From positions 1-42,828 of IMG/VR virus record IMGVR_UViG_2778261419_000003: a stretch of 42,828 nt of DNA, one strand, 5' to 3'. Source of the DNA: a virus. Its lineage: Duplodnaviria > Heunggongvirae > Uroviricota > Caudoviricetes. The position numbers and the translations under genes were made by a program. Positions 3,339 through 26,116 of the stretch are shown here, piece after piece; within the stretch, counting starts at the first letter, position 1; the number at the start of each line of letters is the position of its first letter. The notes below the pieces were generated by a model that was given only the letters and a program-made list of their open reading frames with translations, did no database searches and had not been told where the DNA came from.

Positions 3339-6248
3339 TTATGCCTGAGTACGCAGCGCTTCAAGGCGGCGCAGGTCGAAGTCGTTCAGTTCGTCGGTGT
3401 AATCAGCGGTGATCGGCGCTGGCCATTCGCCAGTGTCAAAGCCGGTAGCGATAGCGCGCATCGCCTTGCGGTACTCGAGCATGCCCAGCTCTAGCAGTTC
3501 AGCGGATGCCTCGATGATGGCGATCCAGTGGTAGTTCTCGTCTTTGTTGACGAAAATCCAGAAGAACTGGTCAAGTGCCGCGGTCTCGCAATACATGGCG
3601 GCGCTCAGGTGATAGTCACGGTCGATGATTTCCCGGTGCAGTTTGGCGCGCAGACCTTCCTGCTTAATGTTCCACATGCTGATGGTTTTAAGGTCGGCAC
3701 CGATGCGTACCCCGTCCAAGTCGATCTCAAGGTCAGGACGCACGCGGACTTCAAGTCCGGTTTCGTCGTCAAAGCCAAAATAGCTCACCTCAACAGCGCG
3801 GCTCGGGTGCTGGAGTAGCATCCCGGCGGTTGGGTGCTGGAGCAGGGCTTTCTGAATGGCCAGTGCGGTGCACAGTTGCTGGCGGGTGACCAGAACTTTT
3901 CCTTGCGGATTCTCACGCCAGGCATCCAGCAATTCGTCGGCGAAGACGGCGTCCGGATTAACAGACTTCACGGCCTGTATCAGGTCTGATTTGGTACCGG
4001 ACACTTTCAGCGGTTGCGGCTTCTGCGCTTCCTGGGCCACCAGGTCAGGATTGATGATTGCCAGCTGCTCGAGTAACGCATCACGGCTACCGCTGGTTTT
4101 CACCTGTGCTGGCAGAGTGGCGTTGTATTCCTTGATGCAGGCTTTCATCGCCGCTGCGGTCTGCTTCTGGTCCGCTTCGATACGCTGATACTCTTCAGGA
4201 AGCGACATATAGCTCTGACCAGTTTCCTCGACTGAACCACCCAGCGGCACCTGTGCTGGCAGAGTGGCGTTGTATTCTTCGAGCAAGGCTTTGATCTCAT
4301 CTGCACTCAGCAGCGCTTGCAGACCTGCGTTGTAATCATCGATAAACGCGCGGATCGTTGCCGTCGTGGTGAATGCGCCTTCCGGAATTACCGGTTCAAC
4401 GCTGAATTCCTCATCGAGCTGCTCTGGCTGCAACGCCAGTGCATGAACCAGGTTACCCATGTCCAGCACCGGAGAACGCTCTTTGGTGATCGTTTTGGCA
4501 ACGTGGCGCGCGTTGAAGTACATCAGGCTAACGCGGGCATCTTTTACCTGCGTGCTGCTGATCCCGTTCGCTGCGTGATAAACCTCGTTCGGCAGACCTT
4601 CATAGCGACCTGGCTCGAAGTAAGCGGGGTAAACAACAGCTGGTTCGTCAGATTGGGCATCTGGCTCGGTTTGTGCCAAAACTGGTTCAGTCTGGTTTAC
4701 AGAATCGCTATTTTGGGCGACAGAATCCGTATTCTGGTTTACATCGGCTTGCTGGCTGGTATCTGATTCTTCACCAGTTTCCATACTGCTTTTGCCTGAC
4801 TGCACTTCAGTACCAGCCTGTTTTTCATCACTGACAGTTTCTTGAACCTGCACATTGCTGGTGGTCTCCGTAGCCTTTTTCGTGCCATGAGTAGCTGAGT
4901 TCTGCAGCAAAGCCGTAACGTCGAATATTCCGTTGCCGACATTTTTAACCAGTTCTTGTTCGACTTTCTGCGGTTGTGCCGCAGCTTCCTCTGCGCGGCG
5001 GCGTGCTCCTTCTTCACGCACGCGTTGCAGGTTCTCTTCGTGAGTGCAGAAGGATTTGCGCGGAGACTCCTTACTTTCAGGTTGGTGAATTTCCTGAGTT
5101 GCTACTTCAGCTTCATGCAACGGCAATAACTCAACCGCAGAGTTGAATTCAGCAGTCATGGTCTGGTTAACAAATTCCAGGTGAGCGACAGGGGTTAGAT
5201 GAATATTTTCCGGCGCGATACGTACCAGGTTAAAAATAGCCGTGCGGTTAACGCCAAGAGCGCCAGGCTGATTGCGCAGAATGCTGCTCCATGATTTCCA
5301 CGGTTCTTCTTTTTTGGTCACGATTTCTTTGGCGCGACGAAGAATGCTGCCTGGGATCTCGAAGTGGTTGAAGTCCATAGGCAGAAGGGCACAGGCAATC
5401 TCTAAATCGAGAGTGTCCAGGGTGTGGTGTGCGTCAGGTCCACGGTCAGTGACGTAACCGCCGTTGGCATTGGTTCCGGAATCAGTACGCTGAACACTAC
5501 TGATGTGATTACCGGCAGCCCATTCACGCGCCAGGATGCCACGGTCAATGTAATCAGTAGCCGCCCACATTCTGGTGAAACGGAGTACCAGCGCGAGTTC
5601 GTGACGCTTGTCCTGGCTGAACACTTTGCGAATGGCATCGGTGTAGCGCCACAGGTCTTTGGTGTCGTAACCCTTCACTTCCGGGCAGTTCTCAGCAGCT
5701 AACAGCAAGTTCTGGACGTAACTGTTATCAGTGTCCATCTCCAGCGCGCCGATAGCTTCGTACTCTTCGCGGGTTACGTGGTGGCGCAGTTCGTCGGCGG
5801 TGAACTGGGAAAGCAGTTGCTTACGAAACGGCATCTGCACTACCGGGTAGAGGGTTGAGTCGTCGTCGTGTTCGTCCAGCGTGATGCCAGCGGTTTCTGG
5901 CAGCGTTGACTCAGTAGTTATGTGACTATCAACGGTCTGAGCCGTTTTCTCGTCAGAGTTTTCAGCTGTGACTTTTGGCAGCCAGGTGCGGTCATCGTTC
6001 TGCAGTTCGTAGCGTTCGCACCAGGTGTAATCCACTGCGCCTTCTTCCGGCAGGTCGTCATATACCGGGAAATCGGTGCGGATTGGTTTGGCATAATCTT
6101 TACCGCGGCCAGTTTCTTCAATTCCGGCTTCTTCCAGTGCCACATCGAGTTGGAGATTGGCGCGCGCTACACTTTTCGCAGTGAACCAAATCACTGCATC
6201 TTTCTTGCCAGACTTCTGACTGGCTTTTATCAGATGGAAAAATTCCAT
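3339..6248 (-). CDS. recE: Exonuclease VIII (RecE-like)
   Basis: N-terminal region matches the E. coli RecE N-terminus as recalled (DLPEEGAVDYTWCERYELQNDDRTW); large acidic/Q-rich linker; conserved C-terminal nuclease domain; start ATG 6246-6248 with AAGAGGA SD chosen over the extended ORF start at 6353. Confidence 0.8.
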   Translation of the reverse strand: MEFFHLIKASQKSGKKDAVIWFTAKSVARANLQLDVALEEAGIEETGRGKDYAKPIRTDFPVYDDLPEEGAVDYTWCERYELQNDDRTWLPKVTAENSDEKTAQTVDSHITTESTLPETAGITLDEHDDDSTLYPVVQMPFRKQLLSQFTADELRHHVTREEYEAIGALEMDTDNSYVQNLLLAAENCPEVKGYDTKDLWRYTDAIRKVFSQDKRHELALVLRFTRMWAATDYIDRGILAREWAAGNHISSVQRTDSGTNANGGYVTDRGPDAHHTLDTLDLEIACALLPMDFNHFEIPGSILRRAKEIVTKKEEPWKSWSSILRNQPGALGVNRTAIFNLVRIAPENIHLTPVAHLEFVNQTMTAEFNSAVELLPLHEAEVATQEIHQPESKESPRKSFCTHEENLQRVREEGARRRAEEAAAQPQKVEQELVKNVGNGIFDVTALLQNSATHGTKKATETTSNVQVQETVSDEKQAGTEVQSGKSSMETGEESDTSQQADVNQNTDSVAQNSDSVNQTEPVLAQTEPDAQSDEPAVVYPAYFEPGRYEGLPNEVYHAANGISSTQVKDARVSLMYFNARHVAKTITKERSPVLDMGNLVHALALQPEQLDEEFSVEPVIPEGAFTTTATIRAFIDDYNAGLQALLSADEIKALLEEYNATLPAQVPLGGSVEETGQSYMSLPEEYQRIEADQKQTAAAMKACIKEYNATLPAQVKTSGSRDALLEQLAIINPDLVAQEAQKPQPLKVSGTKSDLIQAVKSVNPDAVFADELLDAWRENPQGKVLVTRQQLCTALAIQKALLQHPTAGMLLQHPSRAVEVSYFGFDDETGLEVRVRPDLEIDLDGVRIGADLKTISMWNIKQEGLRAKLHREIIDRDYHLSAAMYCETAALDQFFWIFVNKDENYHWIAIIEASAELLELGMLEYRKAMRAIATGFDTGEWPAPITADYTDELNDFDLRRLEALRTQA

Positions 6249-15107: not shown

Positions 15108-15923
15108 ATGAACCTTGAAAACACAGTGAAATACCACTTCGCTAAATCCACACTGATTAGCGATTCTCCGCGCGCTACCGTCTCCGATTCACTGACCGGT
15201 ACCGACATAATGGCTGCCATGGGCATGACGCAGGAACGCGCCGCAATGGGTTACAGCGCCTTCCTCGGCAAGATGGGCATAAGCAATAACGACCGGGATC
15301 GGGCGATCGGTCTGCTGGCTGAGTACGCGATGACAAAATGCGACAAGGTTGCCGCACTGCGTAAGCTCGGTGCCGCGGTTAAACCTCAGGTGATGCACCA
15401 GTTGGCCACCTTCGCTTTTGAGGACTATTCCCGCAGCGCTGCCAGCGTGAAGCAGTGCGATTGTTGTGACGGTCAGGGCTTCATTGAGGCTGACGTGTTC
15501 ACAATGAAATCTCATTATTCAATGAGGATTCCTCAATGGGCGAAAGAGCTTGGTCAGTCACCGAGTGATTTCGAGGTTAAACGACAGGTTCGAGAGGTGG
15601 TTCGAGTGCTGTGCTCGAACTGCAAGGGGAAGAAGGTTGTCAGTTGTGCCTGCAATGATTGCCGGGGACGTGGGAAAGCCGTAGACCAGAAGGAAACGAA
15701 GAAACAGGGGGTGCCGGTTATGACTGACTGCAAGCGCTGCGGCGGGCGTGGATATGAACGCATTCCTTCAACTGAGGCCCACGCAGCTATTTGCCAGATT
15801 ACGGATGTAATCAGCCTGGATACGTGGAAGAAGTCCGTTAAACCGTTCTATGATCAGCTGATTACGAAATTCGATATTGAAGAGGCATGGGCAGAAAACC
15901 AACTGAAACAAATAACACGATAA
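15108..15923 (+). CDS. Q: Late-gene antiterminator Q-like protein
   Basis: 271 aa Cys-rich protein (CxxC clusters) immediately upstream of a terminator and the lysis genes. Confidence 0.6.
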   Translation: MNLENTVKYHFAKSTLISDSPRATVSDSLTGTDIMAAMGMTQERAAMGYSAFLGKMGISNNDRDRAIGLLAEYAMTKCDKVAALRKLGAAVKPQVMHQLATFAFEDYSRSAASVKQCDCCDGQGFIEADVFTMKSHYSMRIPQWAKELGQSPSDFEVKRQVREVVRVLCSNCKGKKVVSCACNDCRGRGKAVDQKETKKQGVPVMTDCKRCGGRGYERIPSTEAHAAICQITDVISLDTWKKSVKPFYDQLITKFDIEEAWAENQLKQITR

Positions 15924-16009
15924 CGGCTATGGAAGTTAATTCCAGCTATTTACTTTTCCCGAATCTGTGTTAATTTTATCCCAACGATGGGTTAATGCCT
16001 TCGTTTCAA

Positions 16010-16045
16010 GCCCCGCGGATAACACCGTGGGGCTTTTGCGTTTCT
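16010..16045 (+). terminator. tR'-like intrinsic terminator downstream of Q
   Basis: GCCCCGCGG-ataacac-CGTGGGGC hairpin followed by TTTTGCGTTTCT. Confidence 0.5.
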
Positions 16046-16080: not shown

Positions 16081-16491
16081 TTAAGGGAGGGTTTTCATTA
16101 CGCTATCAATCTCCCTTCCTTCAAATCTTGAAGTCCAGCCGCAGGAGCCGCAATGGTAAGGAAAGTCATCGAACCCGCTACCGACCTGTTTAAGACAGTT
16201 GGGGCAATAAACCGCGCTGATATACCCACCCGCGGGATTTTTTCTAAAGGCCGCACCCATGTGCTCGACAAACTCATCCTTTGCCCGATAAGCCGCTATT
16301 TCCTTCTCAAGTTCTACGTTCTTGGCTTTCGCCTCGGCAAGTTCTGCTATGGTGGCAGCATGGGCTTTTTGAAGTACGTCGATCTGCTCTCCAATGAAAG
16401 CGATGCGCTCGCGCAGGACCTCGTTACTTTGCACAGCAGAAAGCGCGCCGATCCCGTTTTTAAGGGACGCGATAAGTAATCCTACATCCAT
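16081..16491 (-). CDS. Antisense moron: coiled-coil protein with C-terminal zinc ribbon
   Basis: Minus-strand ORF between Q and the holin; AGGGA SD 6 nt before ATG 16489-16491; coiled-coil N-half; C-terminal CPNC-x14-CGSC zinc ribbon. Confidence 0.5.
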   Translation of the reverse strand: MDVGLLIASLKNGIGALSAVQSNEVLRERIAFIGEQIDVLQKAHAATIAELAEAKAKNVELEKEIAAYRAKDEFVEHMGAAFRKNPAGGYISAVYCPNCLKQVGSGFDDFPYHCGSCGWTSRFEGREIDSVMKTLP

Positions 16492-16504
16492 GGTCATTCC
16501 CTAA

Positions 16505-16741: not shown

Positions 16742-17020
16742 ATGACCAGAATGAGCACCATTTACAGCAGACTTTCATATGGAACAGGAACCACGCTGAC
16801 CGGCTGCGGTGTATCAGCGAAGGCATATGCCGAAACAGCTAAAACAGCAAAAGAGGTGTCCTGGATGTTGGCCGACAGAATTGCAGGGTTAAGCCTGAGC
16901 GACTGGGCAATTATTGTCGGTATCGCATGCACTGTAATCACCTGTGCAGTGAATTGGTATTACAGGAAAAAGGAAAGGGAGGACCGGCTTAATGGCAATG
17001 TCACCAAAGCTGAAGAATAG
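16742..17020 (+). CDS. S: Pinholin (phage 21 S21-like, class II) with dual-start motif
   Basis: M-T-R-M dual start (ATG 16742 and 16751); ...[29 protein letters not shown] resembles S21; GGAGGTGAGG SD. Confidence 0.75.
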
Positions 17021-17564
17021 CGTTATTGCAGCGATACCCGCTGGCGCTATTGCTATCGCTGCGGCGTTGATTACTGGCCCAACGGGTAATGATGGCCTTG
17101 AAGGTGTACGCTATCAGCCTTATCGGGATGTTGTTGGAGTGTGGACTGTATGCTGGGGCCATACTGGTAAAGATATTATCCTCGGCAAGACCTACACCAA
17201 AGCAGAGTGTCGAGCGTTACTTAATAAAGACCTCACCACCGTAGCGCAGCAGATTAATCCGTACATCAAGGTTCCGATCCCTGAAACTACTTGGGGCGCT
17301 CTTTACTCGTTTGTCTACAACGTCGGTGCTGGCAATTTCAAAACCTCCACTCTTCTCTACAAAATAAACCAGGGTGATATCAAAGGCGCATGTGATCAGC
17401 TTCGTCGATGGACATATGCCGGTGGTAAGCAATGGAAAGGGTTGATTACCCGGCGTGAGATTGAGCGTGAAGTTTGCCTGTGGGCAGAAAAACCTCAGGT
17501 TCTTGGTGATGGGCTCGGGCCGCTTAACCCAGGCATTCCGGTATCAGTTCCGGGGGTATTCTGA
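16992..17564 (+). CDS. R: SAR endolysin (lysozyme, phage 21 R21-like)
   Basis: N-terminal SAR domain [25 protein letters not shown]; [26 protein letters not shown]...[31 protein letters not shown] is near-identical to R21 as recalled. Confidence 0.9.
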
Positions 17565-18100
17565 TGAAACCCAGAAAAATTACGATTGTTGCGGTTCTGC
17601 TGGTGGCTGTCGTAATCATTATTGCAGTGCTTAGCGTATTACTGGTTCGTAGCCGCTCAGCTCTTGAAACAGAACAGAGTGAGAATCGGGTATTACGTAA
17701 TGATAACGCGCTGCAGGCGACGGTGATAACTACACAGGCTTTCAACTTCAATCGGTTTAACCAGATAGCAGAGAACGCCAACCGCCTTAACTCGCTGATC
17801 GATGCCGGTACTGAGAAAACTGTCATCGAATACCGGGAGATTCTCCGACGTGAAAAGACCTGTGATCTGCCTGTTCCTGCTGATGTCGCTGGTGGGCTGC
17901 TCAAATACGCGTACCGTTTACGTGCCAGCGCAATGCACCCCGATACCGGGAACACTAACGCAACCGATGATAGTACCGCTGCCGCCAGCTCAATGACGTA
18001 TTGCCAGGCCGTCCTCTGGATTGAACCTTTGCTGGCTGTTATTGAGAAGGGCAACAATAACCTGGCGGGTATACGAGAGATTGAGAAGTTACGAAAATGA
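17564..18100 (+). CDS. Rz: Rz-like inner-membrane spanin
   Basis: 178 aa; N-terminal TM helix, coiled-coil periplasmic domain; directly follows the endolysin. Confidence 0.7.
   Translation: MKPRKITIVAVLLVAVVIIIAVLSVLLVRSRSALETEQSENRVLRNDNALQATVITTQAFNFNRFNQIAENANRLNSLIDAGTEKTVIEYREILRREKTCDLPVPADVAGGLLKYAYRLRASAMHPDTGNTNATDDSTAAASSMTYCQAVLWIEPLLAVIEKGNNNLAGIREIEKLRK
17802..17996 (+). CDS. Rz1: Rz1-like outer-membrane lipoprotein spanin embedded in Rz
   Basis: ORF in +1 frame inside Rz; lipobox LVGC; proline-rich C-terminus. Confidence 0.6.
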   Translation: MPVLRKLSSNTGRFSDVKRPVICLFLLMSLVGCSNTRTVYVPAQCTPIPGTLTQPMIVPLPPAQ

Positions 18101-18361
18101 ATAATGTCCGTTGACATTGTTAGGGTGATTCTCATTTAACAACCTCAACTGCTACATTACAGTGCTTCATCATGCAATTAGCTTTTTCACCAATGGCTTA
18201 GATCCAGTGAAAGTTACTGACGTTATCTAATGACAAGATGAACGTAGCTTTTGTGTAGTTTTTCAGCGAATAGGATTATCTGAATTTAGCATTTTTGGCT
18301 TGTATAAACTGTGGGTAAGTAGCTATAGTCACGTCATAGATAGTATTTTTGCATCTTTTTC

Positions 18362-18384
18362 AAGCCTCTTTTGAGGCTTTTTGC
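18362..18384 (+). terminator. Intrinsic terminator upstream of the protease cassette
   Basis: AGCCTC-tttt-GAGGCT hairpin followed by TTTTT. Confidence 0.45.
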
Positions 18385-18470
18385 ACATTTAAATATGACA
18401 ACAATGGCACATATAGTATGTCCCCCTTGGCACAGGCACTATATGTAGCGCTATAAAAGGAGCTATCATT

Positions 18471-18671
18471 ATGACCCCAGCTGAGTTCTACGATGTTTAC
18501 AATATCAAACCGGCAGAAATGTTGACTGGTGAAACTGTTAACAACTTCGCTTCTCGTGTAATGGCACAGCAAACTAGTACGAGTGGAAACACAGGTGTTT
18601 GGTACTCACAAGGTACCGCTACACAATCGAAGCAAAACCAAACTACAAGTCATCAACTTTACACGTACTGA
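18471..18671 (+). CDS. Hypothetical small Q/S/T-rich protein (first gene of protease cassette)
   Basis: 66 aa; AGGAG SD; stop 3 nt before the protease ATG. Confidence 0.4.
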   Translation: MTPAEFYDVYNIKPAEMLTGETVNNFASRVMAQQTSTSGNTGVWYSQGTATQSKQNQTTSHQLYTY

Positions 18672-18674
18672 TTT

Positions 18675-19577
18675 ATGCCTAATTGGAGCGACGTACTGGG
18701 CGAGATAACGGCTCTCGCCCATAAAAGTCCTATGGATGAGGTTCGCCGTAAATACTTATCTCAACTTTCGAATCATACTGGAAGAAATGTAATCACATAT
18801 TACTCAGGGTGGTTACAGCATGGTGGTGCAGAAGTACGCCATCTTACTCAGATGACTGATGATGATAAGAACGGGTTGATGACAGCCATCAATGGTTTAG
18901 ATGTATCAAAAGGGTTGGATTTGATACTTCATACTCCAGGTGGTGATATTGCCGCTTTGGAATCAATCGGGCATTACTTAAGGTCGAAGTTTGGAACTAA
19001 CATCAGAGCAATTGTTCCTATGATTTCAATGTCCTGCGGAACTATGCTTGCATGTTGTGCCAATGAAATCATCATGGGTAAACAGTCCAACATTGGCCCA
19101 ATTGATCCTCAGTTCAACGGTTTCTCCACCCATGCCATCATTGAAGAATGGAATCGTGCGCAGACGGAAATTTTTCAAAATCCCGCAGCTGTTCAGATGT
19201 GGCAGTTCATTCTTCAAAAGCTAAACCCGACGATCATCGGCGAGTGTGAGAAAGCAATCAAATGGGCAAATGAGATTGTTAAGCATTGGCTTATGACAGG
19301 CATGTTTGATAATGATCCTGAGGCAGAATCAAAAGCAACACATGTTTGTTCAGAGTTAAACAACCATCACACAACCTATACCCACTCGCGTCATATTCAT
19401 TTTGATAAGGCGCAGAAAATTGGGTTGAATGTTACCGAACTTGAAAGTGATCAAGTACTTCAAGATTTGGTTTTGACTATACATCACAGCTACATGCATT
19501 CTTTTGGTGGAGCACCACTGGCAAAAATCATTGAAAATCATAACGGTAACGCAATGATTTGGAATATCCAGTCTTAA
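18675..19577 (+). CDS. Standalone ClpP/S49-fold serine protease (SDH-family-like)
   Basis: 300 aa; LILHTPGGDIAALESIGHYL...MISMSCGTMLACCANEIIMG resembles ClpP-fold/S49 peptidases; located outside the head module in an AT-rich cassette. Confidence 0.55.
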   Translation: MPNWSDVLGEITALAHKSPMDEVRRKYLSQLSNHTGRNVITYYSGWLQHGGAEVRHLTQMTDDDKNGLMTAINGLDVSKGLDLILHTPGGDIAALESIGHYLRSKFGTNIRAIVPMISMSCGTMLACCANEIIMGKQSNIGPIDPQFNGFSTHAIIEEWNRAQTEIFQNPAAVQMWQFILQKLNPTIIGECEKAIKWANEIVKHWLMTGMFDNDPEAESKATHVCSELNNHHTTYTHSRHIHFDKAQKIGLNVTELESDQVLQDLVLTIHHSYMHSFGGAPLAKIIENHNGNAMIWNIQS

Positions 19578-19596
19578 TCCCCCCTGTCTGATTCCA

Positions 19597-19620
19597 GCCT
19601 CGCCTATGCGGGGCTTTTTT
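19597..19620 (+). terminator. Rho-independent terminator after protease cassette
   Basis: GCCTCGC-ctat-GCGGGGC hairpin followed by TTTTTT. Confidence 0.55.
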
Positions 19621-19727
19621 ACGCGTATTGCATACTCAAATCAAACTAGAGTCGTTTAGAAGAGAATTCAAAACGGCGGTCGGACCTGTGTTTTCTTATG
19701 GGTCCTCCCGGCGGGGTTGCCTACCAC

Positions 19728-19739
19728 GGGGCGGCGCGC
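19728..19739. other. cosN-like cohesive end site
   Basis: GGGCGGCGCGCT followed by CGCGGG matches lambda cos GGGCGGCGACCT-CGCGGG at 10/12 positions; lies just upstream of the small terminase gene. Confidence 0.55.
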
Positions 19740-19845
19740 TCGCGGGAAACGGCTAGTTTTTCGGATCCAGGGTCATCATCATCATGTGCGCAGGTCTTTG
19801 ATTTAATTAGAGGCCATTTTCGCAACATGTCGAATCGTTCAAAAA

Positions 19846-20346
19846 GTGTTCACCATCATGGACCAGGAAATTGCCACTTTAAAACTCAATATCAACCAGC
19901 TGGCAGGGATAACCGGCGTACACCGTCAGACGGTTGCCGCGAGACTGAAAAATGTTGAACCTGCTCCAGGCAGCAATAGCAAGTTAAAGCTCTATCTGGT
20001 GACCGACATTCTGACCGAACTGATGATCCCTACCGTTTCGGCCAACATCGACGATATGCCCCCTTCTGACAGGCTGTCCCACTGGAAAGCAGAGAACGAG
20101 AGGCTGAAGTTCGAACAGGATACGGGGCAGTTAATACCCGCAGATGAAGTGGCGCGAGAATTCTCATTGATGGCGAAAGCCGTCGTCATGGTACTTGAAA
20201 CCCTCCCGGATGTGCTCGAGCGCGACTGTGCTTTAACGCCTGCTGCGGTAGTTCGTGTGCAAAGCGTTATCGATGATCTGCGCGACCAGATGGCGGAGAA
20301 GGTGCAGGACGCTGGAAAAGAGGAGGAGCAGCCTGAGGAGGACTGA
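19846..20346 (+). CDS. Terminase small subunit (Nu1-like)
   Basis: 166 aa; N-terminal HTH-like segment LKLNINQLAGITGVHRQTVAARL; acidic C-terminus; immediately upstream of and overlapping TerL (ATGA). Confidence 0.7.
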   Translation: MFTIMDQEIATLKLNINQLAGITGVHRQTVAARLKNVEPAPGSNSKLKLYLVTDILTELMIPTVSANIDDMPPSDRLSHWKAENERLKFEQDTGQLIPADEVAREFSLMAKAVVMVLETLPDVLERDCALTPAAVVRVQSVIDDLRDQMAEKVQDAGKEEEQPEED

Positions 20347-22448
20347 TGGCAAAGCGGGCATCCGCCAGGGACATCCGCCGCGATGTTTCCGGTATTTTAC
20401 GAGCCCCGCGTCGTATGCCGGTGGCCGATGCGGTCAGTACTTATATGCGCGTGCCAATGGGGGCGGGAAACTCAGTTCCGTGGGATCCGGATCTGGCACC
20501 CTATGTGATTGAGCCGATGAACTGTCTGGCATCGCGTGAATACGATGCGGTTGTGTTTGTGGGCCCAGCGCGAACGGGTAAAACCATCGGGCTGATTGAC
20601 GGCTGGATCGTTTATAACATTGTCTGCGATCCGGCAGATATGCTTGTAATTCAGGTATCTGAGGAAAAAGCGCGCGAGCATTCCAAAAAACGCCTGGACC
20701 GTACTTTTCGCTGTAGCCCTGAAGTTAAAACCCGGCTAAGCCCAAGACGTAACGATAACAACGTCTACGACCGTACATTCCGCGCCGGTAACTATCTGAA
20801 GCTGGGCTGGCCATCCGTCAATATCATGTCGTCCTCGGACTATAAAAGTGTGGCGCTGACGGATTATGACCGCTTTCCGGAAGATATCGACGGGGAGGGG
20901 GATGCTTTTTCACTGGCATCGAAACGAACCACGACATTCATGTCCTCCGGGATGACGCTGGTTGAGAGCTCGCCCGGGAGGGATATCAGAGACACAAAAT
21001 GGCGGCGCTCCACGCCCCATGAAGCCCCTCCGACCACCGGAATTTTATCGCTCTATAACCGTGGTGACCGCCGTCGTCTTTACTGGCCATGCCCGCATTG
21101 CGGCGAATATTTCCAGCCGGAAATGGACAATATGACCGGATACCGCGACAGCAGCGATCCTGTGCTTGCCAGCGAAGCGGCGTTTCTTCAGTGCCCTGCC
21201 TGTAAAGGCAGGATCACACCGGACATGAAGCGTGCGCTTAACATGAAATGTGTCTGGCTCCGGGACGGGCAAACCATCGACAGGAAAGGCCTGGTTAGCG
21301 GTGATGGCCGTCGTTCCCGTATTGCCTCCTTCTGGATGGAAGGTCCGGCAGCTGCTTACCAGACCTGGGCGCAGCTTATTTATAAGTTTCTGACCGCCGA
21401 GCAGGAATATGAATCCACGCGCAGCGAAGAAACCCTGAAGACGGTGATCAACACCGATTTCGGCAGGCCCTATTTGCCGCGAGCCAGCATGGAGCAGCGT
21501 AAAAGTGAATTGCTCGAGCAGCGTGCCGAAGACGTCCCAAAACGTTCGGTACCGAACGGCGTGCAGTTTCTCACTGCGACCGTGGACGTGCAGGCCGGGC
21601 GCAACCGGCGCTTTGTTGTGCAGATTACGGGTTATGGAAGTATGGGTGAGCGCTGGATAGTTGACCGTTACAACATCCGGCATTCGCTGCGCTGCGACGG
21701 CAACGGTGAAAGCATTCAGGTGGATCCGGCGAGCTATCCGGAGGACTGGGATCTTTTACTCACTGACGTCTTTGATAAAACGTGGCCGCTCGCAGCTGAC
21801 CCATCAAAGGGCATGCGGCTGATGTCGATGGCCGTGGACTCAGGGGGCGAAGATGGCGTGACGGATAATGCCTACAAGTTCTGGCGCAGATGTCGCCGTG
21901 AGGGGCTGGGTAAGCGTATCTATCTCTTCAAAGGGGACAGCGTCAGGCGCAGCAAACTTATCCAGCGAACGTTTCCCGACAACACGGGCAGATCAACGCG
22001 CCGCGCACAGGCGACTGGTGATGTGCCTCTTTATCTTCTCCAGACCGATGCCCTTAAAGACCGGGTGAATAATGCGCTGTGGCGTGATTCACCCGGCCCT
22101 GGCTATGTGCATTTCCCCGCCTGGCTGGGCAGCTGGTTCTATGACGAACTGACGTATGAGGAACGCTCGAATGAAGGGAAATGGAGTAAGCCCGGCCGGG
22201 GCGCAAACGAAGCATTTGACCTGCTCGTTTATGCCGACGCGCTCGCCATCCTTAGTGGTTACGAAAAAATCAAATGGCCGTCAGCTCCTGAGTGGGCACG
22301 GCGGGAAACGTGGATCGAGGACACGCAGACGGAAGCTGGCGAAATGCCATCCCCGCCGCCTGCGCCGAAATCTAAACCAAAACCAAAACGTGAGAAGCCC
22401 GTAACCGAGCAGGCTAATCCGTGGTCTTCGTCAGGAGGTTGGGTGTGA
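20346..22448 (+). CDS. Terminase large subunit (lambda gpA-like)
   Basis: 700 aa; CPHCGEYFQ zinc-finger-like motif and flanking regions resemble lambda A (ACPHCGEEQY). Confidence 0.9.
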   Translation: MAKRASARDIRRDVSGILRAPRRMPVADAVSTYMRVPMGAGNSVPWDPDLAPYVIEPMNCLASREYDAVVFVGPARTGKTIGLIDGWIVYNIVCDPADMLVIQVSEEKAREHSKKRLDRTFRCSPEVKTRLSPRRNDNNVYDRTFRAGNYLKLGWPSVNIMSSSDYKSVALTDYDRFPEDIDGEGDAFSLASKRTTTFMSSGMTLVESSPGRDIRDTKWRRSTPHEAPPTTGILSLYNRGDRRRLYWPCPHCGEYFQPEMDNMTGYRDSSDPVLASEAAFLQCPACKGRITPDMKRALNMKCVWLRDGQTIDRKGLVSGDGRRSRIASFWMEGPAAAYQTWAQLIYKFLTAEQEYESTRSEETLKTVINTDFGRPYLPRASMEQRKSELLEQRAEDVPKRSVPNGVQFLTATVDVQAGRNRRFVVQITGYGSMGERWIVDRYNIRHSLRCDGNGESIQVDPASYPEDWDLLLTDVFDKTWPLAADPSKGMRLMSMAVDSGGEDGVTDNAYKFWRRCRREGLGKRIYLFKGDSVRRSKLIQRTFPDNTGRSTRRAQATGDVPLYLLQTDALKDRVNNALWRDSPGPGYVHFPAWLGSWFYDELTYEERSNEGKWSKPGRGANEAFDLLVYADALAILSGYEKIKWPSAPEWARRETWIEDTQTEAGEMPSPPPAPKSKPKPKREKPVTEQANPWSSSGGWV

Positions 22449-22660: not shown

Positions 22661-24156
22661 GTTTTTTAGATGATGCGATTGGCCTGTTTTCACCAGGCTG
22701 GAAAGCCTCACGCCTGCGTGCCCGCGCAGTTATTAAAGCGTATGAGGCGGTAAAGCAAACGCGTACCCACAAAGCCCAGAAGGAAAATCGTTCAGCCGAT
22801 CAGCTCAGCCAGATGGGGGCGGTTTCGCTGAGGCAGCAGGCGCGCTGGCTGGATAACAACCACGATCTGGTGATCGGCGTTTTCGACAAGCTGGAAGAAA
22901 GGGTGGTGGGTGCGAAGGGCATCATAGTTGAACCGCATCCGATGCTGAGTAACGGGAAGATCGCTAAAAAGCTGGCCACTGATATCCGCCGAAAGTGGGG
23001 CGAATGGTCCGTAAGGCCAGATGTCACAACCCAGTTTACCCGCCCAATGCTGGAGCGGCTGATGCTGCGAACGTGGCTCCGGGACGGTGAGGTATTTGCT
23101 CAGCTGGTTCGCGGTACCGGAAATGGTCTTCAGCCGGTTGCTGGCGTGCCGTTCTGGCTGGAAGCGCTGGAGCCGGACTTTGTGCCGATGAACAGCGATG
23201 CTGCCACCCAGCTCAATCAGGGCGTTTTTGTCGATAACTGGGGACGCCCGAAAAAATATCAGGTCTATAAAAGCCTGCCAGTATCCGGGCGTCAGTTTGA
23301 TACCAAAGAGATAGATGCAGAGAACATGCTGCATCTCAAATTCACCCGACGCCTGCACCAGACCCGCGGAACGTCTCTTTTGTCTGGTGTTCTGATGCGT
23401 CTGAGCGCGCTGAAAGAATACGAGGACTCGGAGCTTACTGCTGCCAGAATTGCTGCGGCACTCGGCATGTATATCAAAAAAGGCGACGGACAGAGCTTCG
23501 ATTCTGATTCAAGCAGCGATGACCGCGAGCTGATGATTCAGCCCGGTATGCTCTATGACGAACTGCAGGCCGGGGAAGAAATCGGGATGATTAAATCCGA
23601 TCGCCCGAACCCTAACCTCGAATCTTTTCGTAACGGACAGCTGCGTGCCGTGTCCGCCGGCAGTCGCCTCAGCTTTTCCAGCACATCCAGAAACTACAAC
23701 GGAACGTACAGTGCCCAGCGGCAGGAGCTTGTCGAGTCAACCGACGGCTATCTGATTCTTCAGGACTGGTTCATCGGTTCAGTGACCCGGCCCATGTACC
23801 GAGCCTGGCTCAAGATGGCTATTGCTGCCGGAGAAATCAAGCTGCCGAGAGGCATTGATATGGACTCGCTTTATAACGCGGTTTATTCGGGGCCCGTTAT
23901 GCCGTGGATTGATCCCGTTAAAGAAGCGAATGCCTGGAAAACGCAGATCCGCGGCGGTGCTGCTACTGAATCCGACTGGATACGTGCCAGCGGTCGCAAC
24001 CCGGATGATGTTAAGTCACGCCGTAAAGCTGAGGTTGACGAGAACCGTGAACAGGGCCTGGTGTTTGACACCGACCCCGCCAATGATAAAGGAGGCACCA
24101 GTGCCGAAGCCAAAGAACCGGGCGCGCCACCGTCCGAAAGCCAGCGCAAAAAGTAA
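22657..24156 (+). CDS. Portal protein
   Basis: 499 aa between W-like and the protease/capsid ORF; start overlaps W stop (ATGA). Confidence 0.8.
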   Translation: MSFLDDAIGLFSPGWKASRLRARAVIKAYEAVKQTRTHKAQKENRSADQLSQMGAVSLRQQARWLDNNHDLVIGVFDKLEERVVGAKGIIVEPHPMLSNGKIAKKLATDIRRKWGEWSVRPDVTTQFTRPMLERLMLRTWLRDGEVFAQLVRGTGNGLQPVAGVPFWLEALEPDFVPMNSDAATQLNQGVFVDNWGRPKKYQVYKSLPVSGRQFDTKEIDAENMLHLKFTRRLHQTRGTSLLSGVLMRLSALKEYEDSELTAARIAAALGMYIKKGDGQSFDSDSSSDDRELMIQPGMLYDELQAGEEIGMIKSDRPNPNLESFRNGQLRAVSAGSRLSFSSTSRNYNGTYSAQRQELVESTDGYLILQDWFIGSVTRPMYRAWLKMAIAAGEIKLPRGIDMDSLYNAVYSGPVMPWIDPVKEANAWKTQIRGGAATESDWIRASGRNPDDVKSRRKAEVDENREQGLVFDTDPANDKGGTSAEAKEPGAPPSESQRKK

Positions 24157-24169
24157 TTCGTGGTTCCGC

Positions 24170-26116
24170 ATGCAGGCCAGCAATAACAGTGAGGCCGACA
24201 TTTTTATTTATGACGAAATCGGGTACTGGGGCGTAACGGCGAAACAGTTCGTCAATGATCTCCGGGCACTTGGGGACGTCACCCACATCAACCTTTATAT
24301 CAACTCGCCCGGTGGTGATGTCTTCGACGGAATTGCTATTTATAACGCGCTGAAGCACCACGGCGCGGCGATTACCGTACATATCGACGGTCTGGCGGCC
24401 TCCATGGCCTCGGTGATTGCGATGGTAGGCAATCCGGTCATCATGCCTGAAAACACGATGATGATGATCCATAAGCCCTGGGGGTTTGCTGGTGGTGACG
24501 CGAGCGATATGCGCGACTATGCGGATCTTCTCGACAAGGTTGAATCCGTTCTTATCCCGGCTTATGCACAGAAAACCGGAAAATCCACCGAAGAAATTGC
24601 GGCAATGCTGGAGGACGAAACCTGGATGAACGGCAGCGAGTGCCTTGAACTGGGTTTTGCCGACCAGGTGACACCATCCCTTCAGGCTATGGCCTGTATT
24701 CATTCAAAACGTATTGAGGAATTTGAAAAAATGCCAAAAAGCATTCGCAACATGATCACCCCGCCGCGCAACACTACCCAGCGTGACCCGGTTATTACCC
24801 AGCCTCAGGCACCGCAGGCAAAAACAGACCCGGCACCGGATGAAAATGCGATCCGCGCGCAGGTGTTGGCTGAGCAGAAAACCCGTGTTAACGCTATCGG
24901 CGATCTCTTTGCCATGTTCGGTAATAAGCACATGGAACTGCAGAATCAGTGTGTGGCCGACCCTGATTGCTCCGTCGATAAGGCGAAAGATTTGCTGCTG
25001 GCAGAACTCGGTAAAACGGCCACGCCGTCCAATAAAACCACTCAGCCGCATATTCATGCGGGCAACGGTAACTTCGTCGCGGATGGTATTCGCCAGGCAC
25101 TGATGGCGCGTGCCGGGTTCGAAGGTCAGGAGCGGGATAACGTTTATAACGGTATGACGCTGCGCGAGTATGCGCGTATGGCCCTGACAGAAAAAGGTAT
25201 CGGCGTGGCCAGCTACAACCCGATGCAGATGGTTGGCCTGGCGCTGACCCACAGCACCTCTGACTTTGGCAACATTCTGCTTGATGTTGCGAACAAAGCG
25301 CTGATTCAGGGCTGGGACGAGGCGCAGGAAACCTTCGAGCAGTGGACCAAAAAAGGCCAGCTGTCGGACTTCAAAACGGCGCATCGTGTCGGTATGGGTG
25401 GGTTCCCTTCTCTGCGACAGGTTCGCGAAGGGGCTGAGTACAAGTACATCACTACCAGTGACAAAGGCGAAACCATCGCGCTTGCCACGTATGGTGAAAT
25501 CTTCTCAGTAACTCGCCAGGCGATCATCAACGACGATCTGAACCAGCTTACCGACGTACCGATGAAGATGGGGCGCGCGGCGAAAGCAACGATTGGCGAT
25601 CTGGTTTACGCCATTCTGACCAAAAACCCGAAACTCTCAGACGGAAAGGCGCTGTTCCATGCCGATCACAAGAACCTGAGCTCGGGTGCAATTTCTGTGG
25701 CCAGCCTGGACGAATCGCGCAAGCTGATGCGTCTGCAGAAGGAGGGGGAGCGAACCCTGAATATCCGTCCGGCCTACATGCTGGTGCCCGTCGCCCTGGA
25801 AACTCTGGCAAATCAGACCATCAAGTCGGCCAGTGTTAAAGGTGCAGACATCAATGCCGGGATCGTTAACCCTATCCAGAACTTTGCAGAAGTCATTGCC
25901 GAACCACGTCTGGATGAAGCTGATGCGAAAGCCTGGTATCTGGCTGCCGCGAAGGGCACCGACACCATTGAGGTCGCTTATCTCAACGGCGTCGACACGC
26001 CATACATCGATCAGCAGGAAGGCTTCACCACTGATGGTATCGCCACGAAAGTGCGTATTGATGCTGGCGTGGCGCCGCTGGACTATCGCGGCATGACCAA
26101 ATCCTCTGGTCAGTAA
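24170..26116 (+). CDS. Fused prohead protease (ClpP/S49-like) and major capsid protein
   Basis: Single 648-codon ORF from ATG 24170; N-terminal IFIYDEIGYWG...INSPGGDVFDG...AASMASVIAMVG protease motifs; C-terminal about 330 aa resembles Mu gpT-type major head subunit. Confidence 0.7.
   Translation: MQASNNSEADIFIYDEIGYWGVTAKQFVNDLRALGDVTHINLYINSPGGDVFDGIAIYNALKHHGAAITVHIDGLAASMASVIAMVGNPVIMPENTMMMIHKPWGFAGGDASDMRDYADLLDKVESVLIPAYAQKTGKSTEEIAAMLEDETWMNGSECLELGFADQVTPSLQAMACIHSKRIEEFEKMPKSIRNMITPPRNTTQRDPVITQPQAPQAKTDPAPDENAIRAQVLAEQKTRVNAIGDLFAMFGNKHMELQNQCVADPDCSVDKAKDLLLAELGKTATPSNKTTQPHIHAGNGNFVADGIRQALMARAGFEGQERDNVYNGMTLREYARMALTEKGIGVASYNPMQMVGLALTHSTSDFGNILLDVANKALIQGWDEAQETFEQWTKKGQLSDFKTAHRVGMGGFPSLRQVREGAEYKYITTSDKGETIALATYGEIFSVTRQAIINDDLNQLTDVPMKMGRAAKATIGDLVYAILTKNPKLSDGKALFHADHKNLSSGAISVASLDESRKLMRLQKEGERTLNIRPAYMLVPVALETLANQTIKSASVKGADINAGIVNPIQNFAEVIAEPRLDEADAKAWYLAAAKGTDTIEVAYLNGVDTPYIDQQEGFTTDGIATKVRIDAGVAPLDYRGMTKSSGQ

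Follow-up and report, generated by a model that had tools for sequence, protein, structure and literature searches.

A mobile two-gene cassette pairing a small Q/S/T-rich protein with an SDH-type ClpP-fold serine protease in a lambdoid Escherichia coli prophage

The viral record IMGVR_UViG_2778261419_000003 (Caudoviricetes; positions 1–42,828, analysed at full length and hereafter called the window) is a lambdoid Escherichia coli prophage that carries, at approximately positions 18251–19621, a self-contained mobile two-gene module as prophage cargo. The module encodes a small partner protein of 66 amino acids (aa) and, translationally coupled to it, a cytoplasmic 300-aa SDH-type serine protease of the ClpP fold. 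We tentatively read this cassette as a mobile anti-phage defence or toxin–antitoxin-like protease switch, in which the partner would act as inhibitor and autoregulator and the protease as effector, and we put this reading at a little under an even chance. A previous sequence-only reading of the window had pointed to an accessory two-gene protease cassette at this place; its picture of an accessory, autonomous-looking, non-head protease with a plausible role in defence holds, and its terms 'terminator-flanked' and 'S49-like' turned out to be imprecise. The cassette is made up of the following elements:

18251–18299, + strand: left border zone of the mobile unit, where copies in other backbones start aligning (18251–18288)
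18300–18329, + strand: conserved promoter-like element P1 (−35 TTGTAT at 18300–18305, 18-nt spacer, −10 TATAGT at 18324–18329)
18362–18384, + strand: terminator-like leader hairpin (AAGCCTC-TTTT-GAGGCTT, then TTTG)
18409–18448, + strand: conserved dyad with arms ACATATAGT (18409–18417) and ACTATATGT (18438–18446), both boxes reading A.AT.T.G
18457–18462, + strand: Shine–Dalgarno sequence AAGGAG, 8 nt before the ATG, with GGAG or GAGG at the equivalent place in aligned leaders
18471–18671, + strand: small partner protein, 66 aa (PHROG 25714, E = 3.9e-44)
18675–19577, + strand: SDH-type ClpP-fold serine protease, 300 aa (Pfam PF01972)
19596–19621, + strand: intrinsic terminator and right border of the mobile unit (stem 19596–19615, 8 bp with 6 GC pairs, then TTTTTT; ΔG −14.3 kcal/mol)

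The extent of the unit follows from a comparison of approximately 180 related loci. Copies in other phage backbones that are 80–83% identical to the cassette (loci L022–L025 and L180) begin to align at 18251–18288 and stop at 19621–19665, which gives a mobile unit of approximately 1.35 kb that starts upstream of position 18362, where its beginning had previously been placed; the backbone common to the window and the prophage of E. coli Nissle 1917 resumes at 19701. The cassette lies, as had been proposed, between the spanins and cos (the lysis–terminase slot) and is AT-rich, with a GC content of 0.37–0.44 against 0.50–0.58 in the flanks. Backbones that differ in their terminases carry it, and it uses the three classical prophage cargo slots (Q–holin, lysis–terminase and integrase-adjacent); it thus combines the deviant base composition and the presence in different backbones and slots by which morons are recognized. 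E. coli Nissle 1917 (L178, NZ_CP022686, 454923–456041) carries a variant cassette at 70% nucleotide identity, with a 68-aa open reading frame (ORF) and an SDH protease, after Q in the Q–holin slot of a prophage that has cos, terS and terL as in the window and other cargo in the lysis–terminase slot. In another E. coli prophage, bor and remnants of lysis genes precede the cassette. No exact empty site of the cassette was found.

The two coupled genes exist as first described, and their pairing is conserved far beyond E. coli. A small ORF precedes the protease gene at 114 of 130 distinct protease loci, compared with 27% of control genes; its median length is 67 aa, and it overlaps the protease gene or ends within approximately 60 nt of it. 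Homologues of the 66-aa partner itself always lie 3–15 nt upstream of the protease (47 loci). In the window the genes are set apart by a TGA stop and 3 nt, and no Shine–Dalgarno sequence precedes the protease gene. The two ORFs are in the same frame, separated by TGA TTT alone (18669–18677); a readthrough fusion was considered and rejected, as frame and spacing vary in other copies, and programmed readthrough is unlikely because the same-frame TGA TTT arrangement is not kept there. The partner diverges two to three times faster than the protease, and the two co-diverge (Spearman 0.55): where proteases are 95, 83, 74 and 64% identical, their partners are 85, 53, 46 and 34% identical, respectively, and at protease identities of 56% or less the partners are at the shuffled baseline. 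An antitoxin that diverges faster than its toxin is the usual pattern.

The partner is rich in Q, S and T, as the sequence-only reading had noticed; these three account for 24 of its 66 residues and for 21 of the 34 in the C-terminal half. An AlphaFold2 model predicts helices at residues 3–9 and 23–36 and disorder in the remainder, including the Q/S/T/N-rich tail. Close homologues conserve residues 1–34, a strand-like motif TGVWYSQGTA (41–50) and a C-terminal QLYTY. Compared by eye, partners from Pseudomonas, Methylomonas, Dehalobacter and Methanosarcinaceae share a four-part layout: an N-terminal helix, often with 'F..(L/F)(G/N)(I/L)P'; the segment '..A..FA..FKKCS(I/V)L'; a strand-like phi-x-Y-S-x-x-S/T; and a polar tail of variable length. 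A jackhmmer search started from the 66-aa partner reached Enterobacterales-type partners only, and the wider partner classes were joined by low-stringency BLAST single linkage and by eye only; the helix–linker–strand layout is all that the other small-protein classes share with the partner.

Annotation of both genes is uneven between records. In RefSeq, the 66-aa ORF is unannotated in NZ_CP025916 (L001, 20372–20572) and annotated in some other records, and the protease start codon varies between copies (L002, 6633–7478), with a 281-aa product in NZ_CP041448, for example. In Shewanella phage MuM16-1 (L094), the ORF annotated upstream of the protease (4652–4924, 90 aa) runs across the conserved hairpin and dyad; translation of the true small ORF probably begins with the ATG past the Shine–Dalgarno sequence, at approximately 4727, giving MKNTNLKV....

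The protease has the ClpP fold and matches Pfam PF01972 (SDH_protease) at 81.2 bits, the cut-off being 31.3; residues 22–255 align to profile positions 35–246 of 286. The S49 SppA model TIGR00706 gave 16 bits against a cut-off of 155, so that of the earlier 'ClpP-fold/S49-like' description only the first half stands. PHROG 11747, a family of unknown function, matches it end to end. Its score with the NCBIfam equivalog NF047768 (Clp_like_SDH) is 95.9 bits, below the cut-off of 250; despite this, the protein already goes by the name 'SDH family Clp fold serine proteinase' in RefSeq/PGAP, and the statement that it could not be assigned to a named system does not hold in that form. No chain matched in a sequence search of the PDB, and hhalign against E. 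coli ClpP aligned the PGG loop alone. Both the HTPGGD and MISMSCG motifs reported in the sequence-only reading are present. Across 116 distinct homologues, H86, S120, S138, D144, H237, R239, H270 and H271 are invariant and S118 varies; the loss of catalytic residues that had been named as a check on the reading was not seen. Along the chain, S120 is followed by D144 and then by H237, H270 and H271, an order Ser, Asp, His like that of the catalytic residues in the Pfam description of PF01972. S120 sits at a strand-to-helix turn, like the ClpP nucleophile, with which the PGG-loop register equates it; in the same register D144 falls at the position of the ClpP histidine, and the helical C-terminal half is extra relative to ClpP. 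Because the invariant S120 and D144 are at ClpP-equivalent positions, the protease looks catalytically competent, with its catalytic-type residues intact, and it is under strong purifying selection. In one E. coli-type metagenomic prophage (L177, 9853–10735), a frameshift splits the protease gene into 51-aa and 244-aa products, so that the protease there is probably inactivated.

The conserved leader is the third constituent of the unit. P1 is kept in 11 of 16 aligned leaders as TTG(T/A/C)NA...CTGTGGRTAAGT.GCTATAGT, and its 21-mer, with 0.01 occurrences expected in the window, is present there once; the −35 hexamer in the window matches at three of six positions, and P1 may serve as a promoter. 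The leader hairpin (18362–18379, ΔG −12 kcal/mol, z −3.3) folds better than all of 200 shuffled sequences, and a hairpin with a T-run stands at the equivalent place in divergent copies from the Shewanella phage L094, Thalassospira (L101) and Dehalobacter (L093). Of the two terminators previously proposed, the downstream one is present (19596–19615 plus a T-run); the upstream one is a stable hairpin that failed a terminator scan because its T-run is short. Since the unit starts upstream of it with the conserved P1, this hairpin is a leader element inside the mobile unit, downstream of a promoter-like element, rather than a flank. In Q-slot copies the phage's own late promoter and terminator lie approximately 170 nt upstream of P1, and P1 and the hairpin thus belong to the cassette; the possibility that they are the phage's own late promoter and terminator was rejected on this ground, the window having its own at approximately 15940–16040. 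The region 15940–16040 also differs in sequence from P1 and the hairpin.

The claim of a putative promoter of its own fared unevenly. P1 is conserved and promoter-like, whereas the candidate of a promoter scan (TTTAAA-18-TATAGT, 18388–18417) matches the consensus at 9 of 12 positions, and the region holds 7 promoter-like sites against 4.7 ± 2.3 expected, which is not significant. That candidate would use dyad box L as its sigma-70 −10 hexamer, a doubtful assignment, as hexamer position 2 varies (TGTAGT, TCTTGT, TTTTGT). The P1 spacer contains a DnaA-box-like 9-mer, TGTGGGTAA (18311–18319); a perfect TGTGGATAA occurs in three other leaders (L099, L038 and L048), and those of the L003/L027/L031 type lack the 9-mer. 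TGTGGATAA is the reverse complement of TTATCCACA, the DnaA-box consensus.

The 9-bp inverted repeat noted before is real, with its coordinates off by 1 nt. Taken in the window alone, it is not beyond chance, as 9 comparable repeats occur in 1.75 kb; what makes it significant is that 51 related loci keep it, always at a set distance from the gene. In these 51 loci (27 distinct sequences) the pattern A.AT.T.GT-N(12–28)-TA.AT.T.G lies 260–334 nt upstream of the protease start, and elsewhere in 4.1 Mb it has 27 matches only. The dyad-positive loci extend from Enterobacterales to Alphaproteobacteria (Thalassospira), Firmicutes (Dehalobacter), Methylomonas and the Shewanella Mu-like phage, and the order hairpin, dyad, Shine–Dalgarno sequence is likewise kept in these distant loci. 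Three of the nine dyad pairs have changed on both sides, which would fit an RNA hairpin or a symmetric operator. Because the dyad accompanies the cassette from phylum to phylum, a recognition factor encoded in the cassette, or an RNA structure, is favoured over a host-specific regulator. An Rfam scan of 17900–19900 found nothing near any gathering score, and pairing between the leader and the small-ORF initiation region gave no signal in a crude RNAduplex test.

Relatives of the protease are widespread. More than 8,000 clusters at 90% identity match it, the best 120 being at least 54% identical, and 350 entries in a library of 50%-identity representatives score E ≤ 1e-30. At least 497 species genomes encode a relative; the best 80 of these are 50–84% identical and belong to Proteobacteria, Firmicutes, Bacteroidota, Actinomycetota, Nitrospirae, Planctomycetes, Acidobacteria, Elusimicrobia and Methanosarcinales archaea. 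Identity of at least 50% across bacterial phyla and Methanosarcinales implies frequent horizontal transfer of a self-sufficient unit. Among 5,426 complete E. coli genomes, 80 carry some variant and 42 carry that of the window, and E. coli UPEC85 matches the window at 100% over 17300–20700. The protease is encoded by 215 IMG/VR contigs. Of 50,697 deposited phage genomes, only 7 encode it; they belong to Porphyromonas phages, a Gordonia phage and a Shewanella Mu-like phage, and none has an Enterobacterales host.

On viral contigs, the upstream neighbour is Q in 13 of 56 cases, with spanins, endolysins or the host gene mutS in others; downstream neighbours include a convergent integrase (11 of 70), holins (7), small terminases (4) and an N6/N4 methyltransferase. 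Immediate neighbours in genomes across phyla include integrases (7 of 142), AAA_21/AriA-like ATPases (3), type I restriction enzymes (2), BrxL (1), mad2/mad3 (3) and methyltransferases, and some copies lie in non-phage islands beside restriction, BREX or AbiEii-like genes. These neighbours are suggestive of defence islands. In Porphyromonas gingivalis phages (L095, BK068108, 3855–5882), the pair is directly downstream of a HicA/HicB toxin–antitoxin pair, within the structural gene block, and in the Shewanella Mu-like phage it comes after the late activator C.

From this genomic context, phage defence is the most likely role of the cassette, and the possibility of defence raised in the sequence-only reading is plausible on the same basis. 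In the switch that we envisage, the partner would dock on the protease through its N-terminal helices and occupy the substrate groove with its conserved strand motif (GVWYSQGT), which would serve as a pseudosubstrate and keep the protease silent; alone or with the protease, the partner would also act on the leader dyad and so limit expression. Infection would deplete or displace the disordered, presumably labile partner, and the freed protease would cleave host or phage proteins, so that phage production stops. Each of these steps, including the trigger, the targets and the defence phenotype, is less certain taken singly than the statement as a whole. Were it so, the cassette might represent a new class of toxin–antitoxin or defence switch working in bacteria and archaea, with a ClpP-fold protease as effector and a disordered partner as both pseudosubstrate inhibitor and dyad autoregulator; we regard this wider proposal as unlikely.

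Several observations weigh against the defence or switch reading. No model in PADLOC-DB 2.0.0 matches either protein, and a search of the available literature found no description of a system of a small protein with an SDH protease. Defence genes are neighbours at a minority of loci. No recognisable small upstream ORF is present at 16 of the 130 distinct loci, and the small-protein classes outside the Enterobacterales/Pseudomonas type are tied to the partner by layout, without significant sequence similarity. Binding and inhibition of the protease by the partner are steps that we infer, and there are several candidate histidines for the third residue of the putative triad. Finally, a late transcript would also read the cassette in the Q–holin and lysis–terminase slots.

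This last point is why a role in the lytic cycle has to be weighed: the protease might help the phage to grow lytically, for instance by breaking down host proteins of defence or stress response, and the partner might be an adaptor or timer. Two of the three slots are inside the late operon, the pair follows activator C in the Shewanella phage, and it stands among structural genes in the Porphyromonas phages. Many copies, however, are at a prophage end, convergent with the integrase and outside the late operon; others are in the non-phage islands described above; the unit has leader elements and a terminator of its own; and its rarity among deposited phage genomes, with no Enterobacterales phage among them, is hard to match with a lytic helper, which we consider improbable. 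About equally improbable is a precursor-processing pair, in which the partner would be a substrate: cleavage within the conserved motif would yield an active peptide, acting as toxin or signal and derived from the S/T/Q-rich tail or the N-terminal helices. The leader-like helical N-terminus, the conserved strand motif, the C-terminal pentapeptide conserved in Enterobacterales, the disordered tail and the strict adjacency and coupling of the pair would suit such a precursor. Against it, the tail varies in length and sequence, the small ORF of Gordonia phage BeeGee stops directly after the strand motif, the unit has no signal peptide, transporter or modification enzyme, and a peptide signal is hard to square with a module present in Gram-negatives, Firmicutes and archaea.

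A pure addiction module, that is, a toxin–antitoxin pair that keeps the prophage or island in place and does nothing against other phages, has a similarly small share of our confidence. The small gene comes first and evolves faster, the leader holds a dyad, the unit is mobile, and the pair adjoins HicAB in the Porphyromonas phages; the present data do not separate addiction from defence, and many toxin–antitoxin pairs serve both stabilisation and defence. An anti-phage phenotype, reported for a pair of a hypothetical protein and an SDH_sah protease, would favour defence. By far the least probable account is that the protease is a duplicate or relic of a head-maturation protease or scaffold, which had been named as the homology that would overturn the accessory reading. 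Weak similarity to ClpP-related head-maturation models exists (NF045542, 20.9 bits; phrog_53, E = 6e-5), but the scores are far under the cut-offs (120 bits for NF045542; 12.1 against 475 bits for NF045540), and the phage owns a protease–capsid fusion at 23822–26116, as the sequence-only reading had said. Homologues are encoded outside morphogenesis modules, in non-phage and archaeal genomes, and are under strong purifying selection, and we rejected a head-protease duplicate on the scores, the fusion and the spread outside phages.

Among known systems, the closest counterpart is the two-gene DefenseFinder entry 'FS_HP_SDH_sah' (hypothetical protein plus SDH_sah protease), which the cassette may match; SDH_sah is presumably the former Pfam name of PF01972. 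The entry reportedly goes back to the 2022 study by Fillol-Salom and co-workers of immunity encoded by phage-inducible chromosomal islands (PICIs), where it is said to be a validated anti-phage system; we know of no described mechanism for it. It would share with the cassette an adjacent small hypothetical protein and PF01972 protease on a phage-related mobile element, and differ in its carrier, a PICI rather than the lysis–terminase slot of a lambdoid prophage. The name was absent from the literature texts and supplements searched. DefenseFinder output in the supplement of PMC12259885 lists FS_GIY_YIG, FS_HP and FS_HsdR_like from the Fillol-Salom digital object identifier, and not FS_HP_SDH_sah. 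The Tai system is a different system from the cassette.

The protease differs from ClpP (MEROPS S14), SppA (S49) and the NfeD 1510-N stomatin-specific protease in its Ser-Asp-His order, with Asp144 at the ClpP-histidine position, in its extra helical C-terminal half and in matching no PDB chain by sequence; nor is an AAA+ partner or a membrane anchor encoded near it. With phage prohead proteases (ClpP-related or S49, such as lambda gpC and the fusion of this phage) it shares the fold superfamily and carriage by phages, whereas it is encoded outside the morphogenesis module, scores below the model cut-offs and is widespread outside phages. Type II toxin–antitoxin modules resemble the cassette, as read from its sequence, in having a small (predicted labile) first gene and a conserved enzymatic second gene, co-oriented and coupled, a leader dyad, mobility, and presence in prophages and islands; to our knowledge, no toxin–antitoxin family has a ClpP-fold protease as its toxin. 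Lambdoid morons (bor and lom of lambda; stx in the Q–S slot) are likewise AT-rich autonomous units with their own terminator, in slots between conserved modules that other cargo uses, but the cassette departs from the simple promoter–gene–terminator scheme in that its upstream hairpin is downstream of its conserved promoter-like element.

The surrounding late region of the prophage has the following order:

15108–15923: antiterminator Q
~15940–16040: the phage's own late promoter and terminator (pR'/tR'), behind Q; includes a lambda-like pause element AACGATGGGTTAAT and, at 16009–16040, a strong hairpin terminator
16081–16497, − strand: 138-aa ORF in the Q–holin interval, probably another accessory gene of the Q–holin slot
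16992–17564: endolysin, preceded by the holin
17564–18100: i-spanin
17802–17996: embedded o-spanin, 64 aa, with lipobox LVGC, in the +1 frame of the i-spanin gene (Rz/Rz1-type arrangement)
~19729–19740: cos-like site, GGGCGGCGCGCT inside CACGGGGCGGCGCGCTCGCGGG, resembling lambda cosN
19846–20346: small terminase, DUF1441-type
20346–22448: large terminase
23822–26116: head protease/capsid fusion (NF045540, 996 bits against a cut-off of 475)

Lambda cosN reads GGGCGGCGACCT. Given the position of the cos-like site, the cassette would lie at the very right-hand end of the genome as packaged. Related prophages are inserted at tRNA-Thr, beside proA.

The small gene of the pair is often missed by current genome annotation, and the system goes undetected by PADLOC 2.0.0. 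The cassette offers good handles for study: a universal small partner with a conserved strand motif, the invariant Ser120, Asp144 and histidines of the protease as sites for mutation, a hairpin-and-dyad leader kept across phyla, and natural copies in strains that are easy to work with, E. coli Nissle 1917 among them. Conservation of the protease at 50% identity or more from Enterobacterales to Methanosarcinales implies that its target is universal or that its circuit is wholly self-contained. In each case the system would shed light on prokaryotic immunity and could be of use as a portable protease switch.

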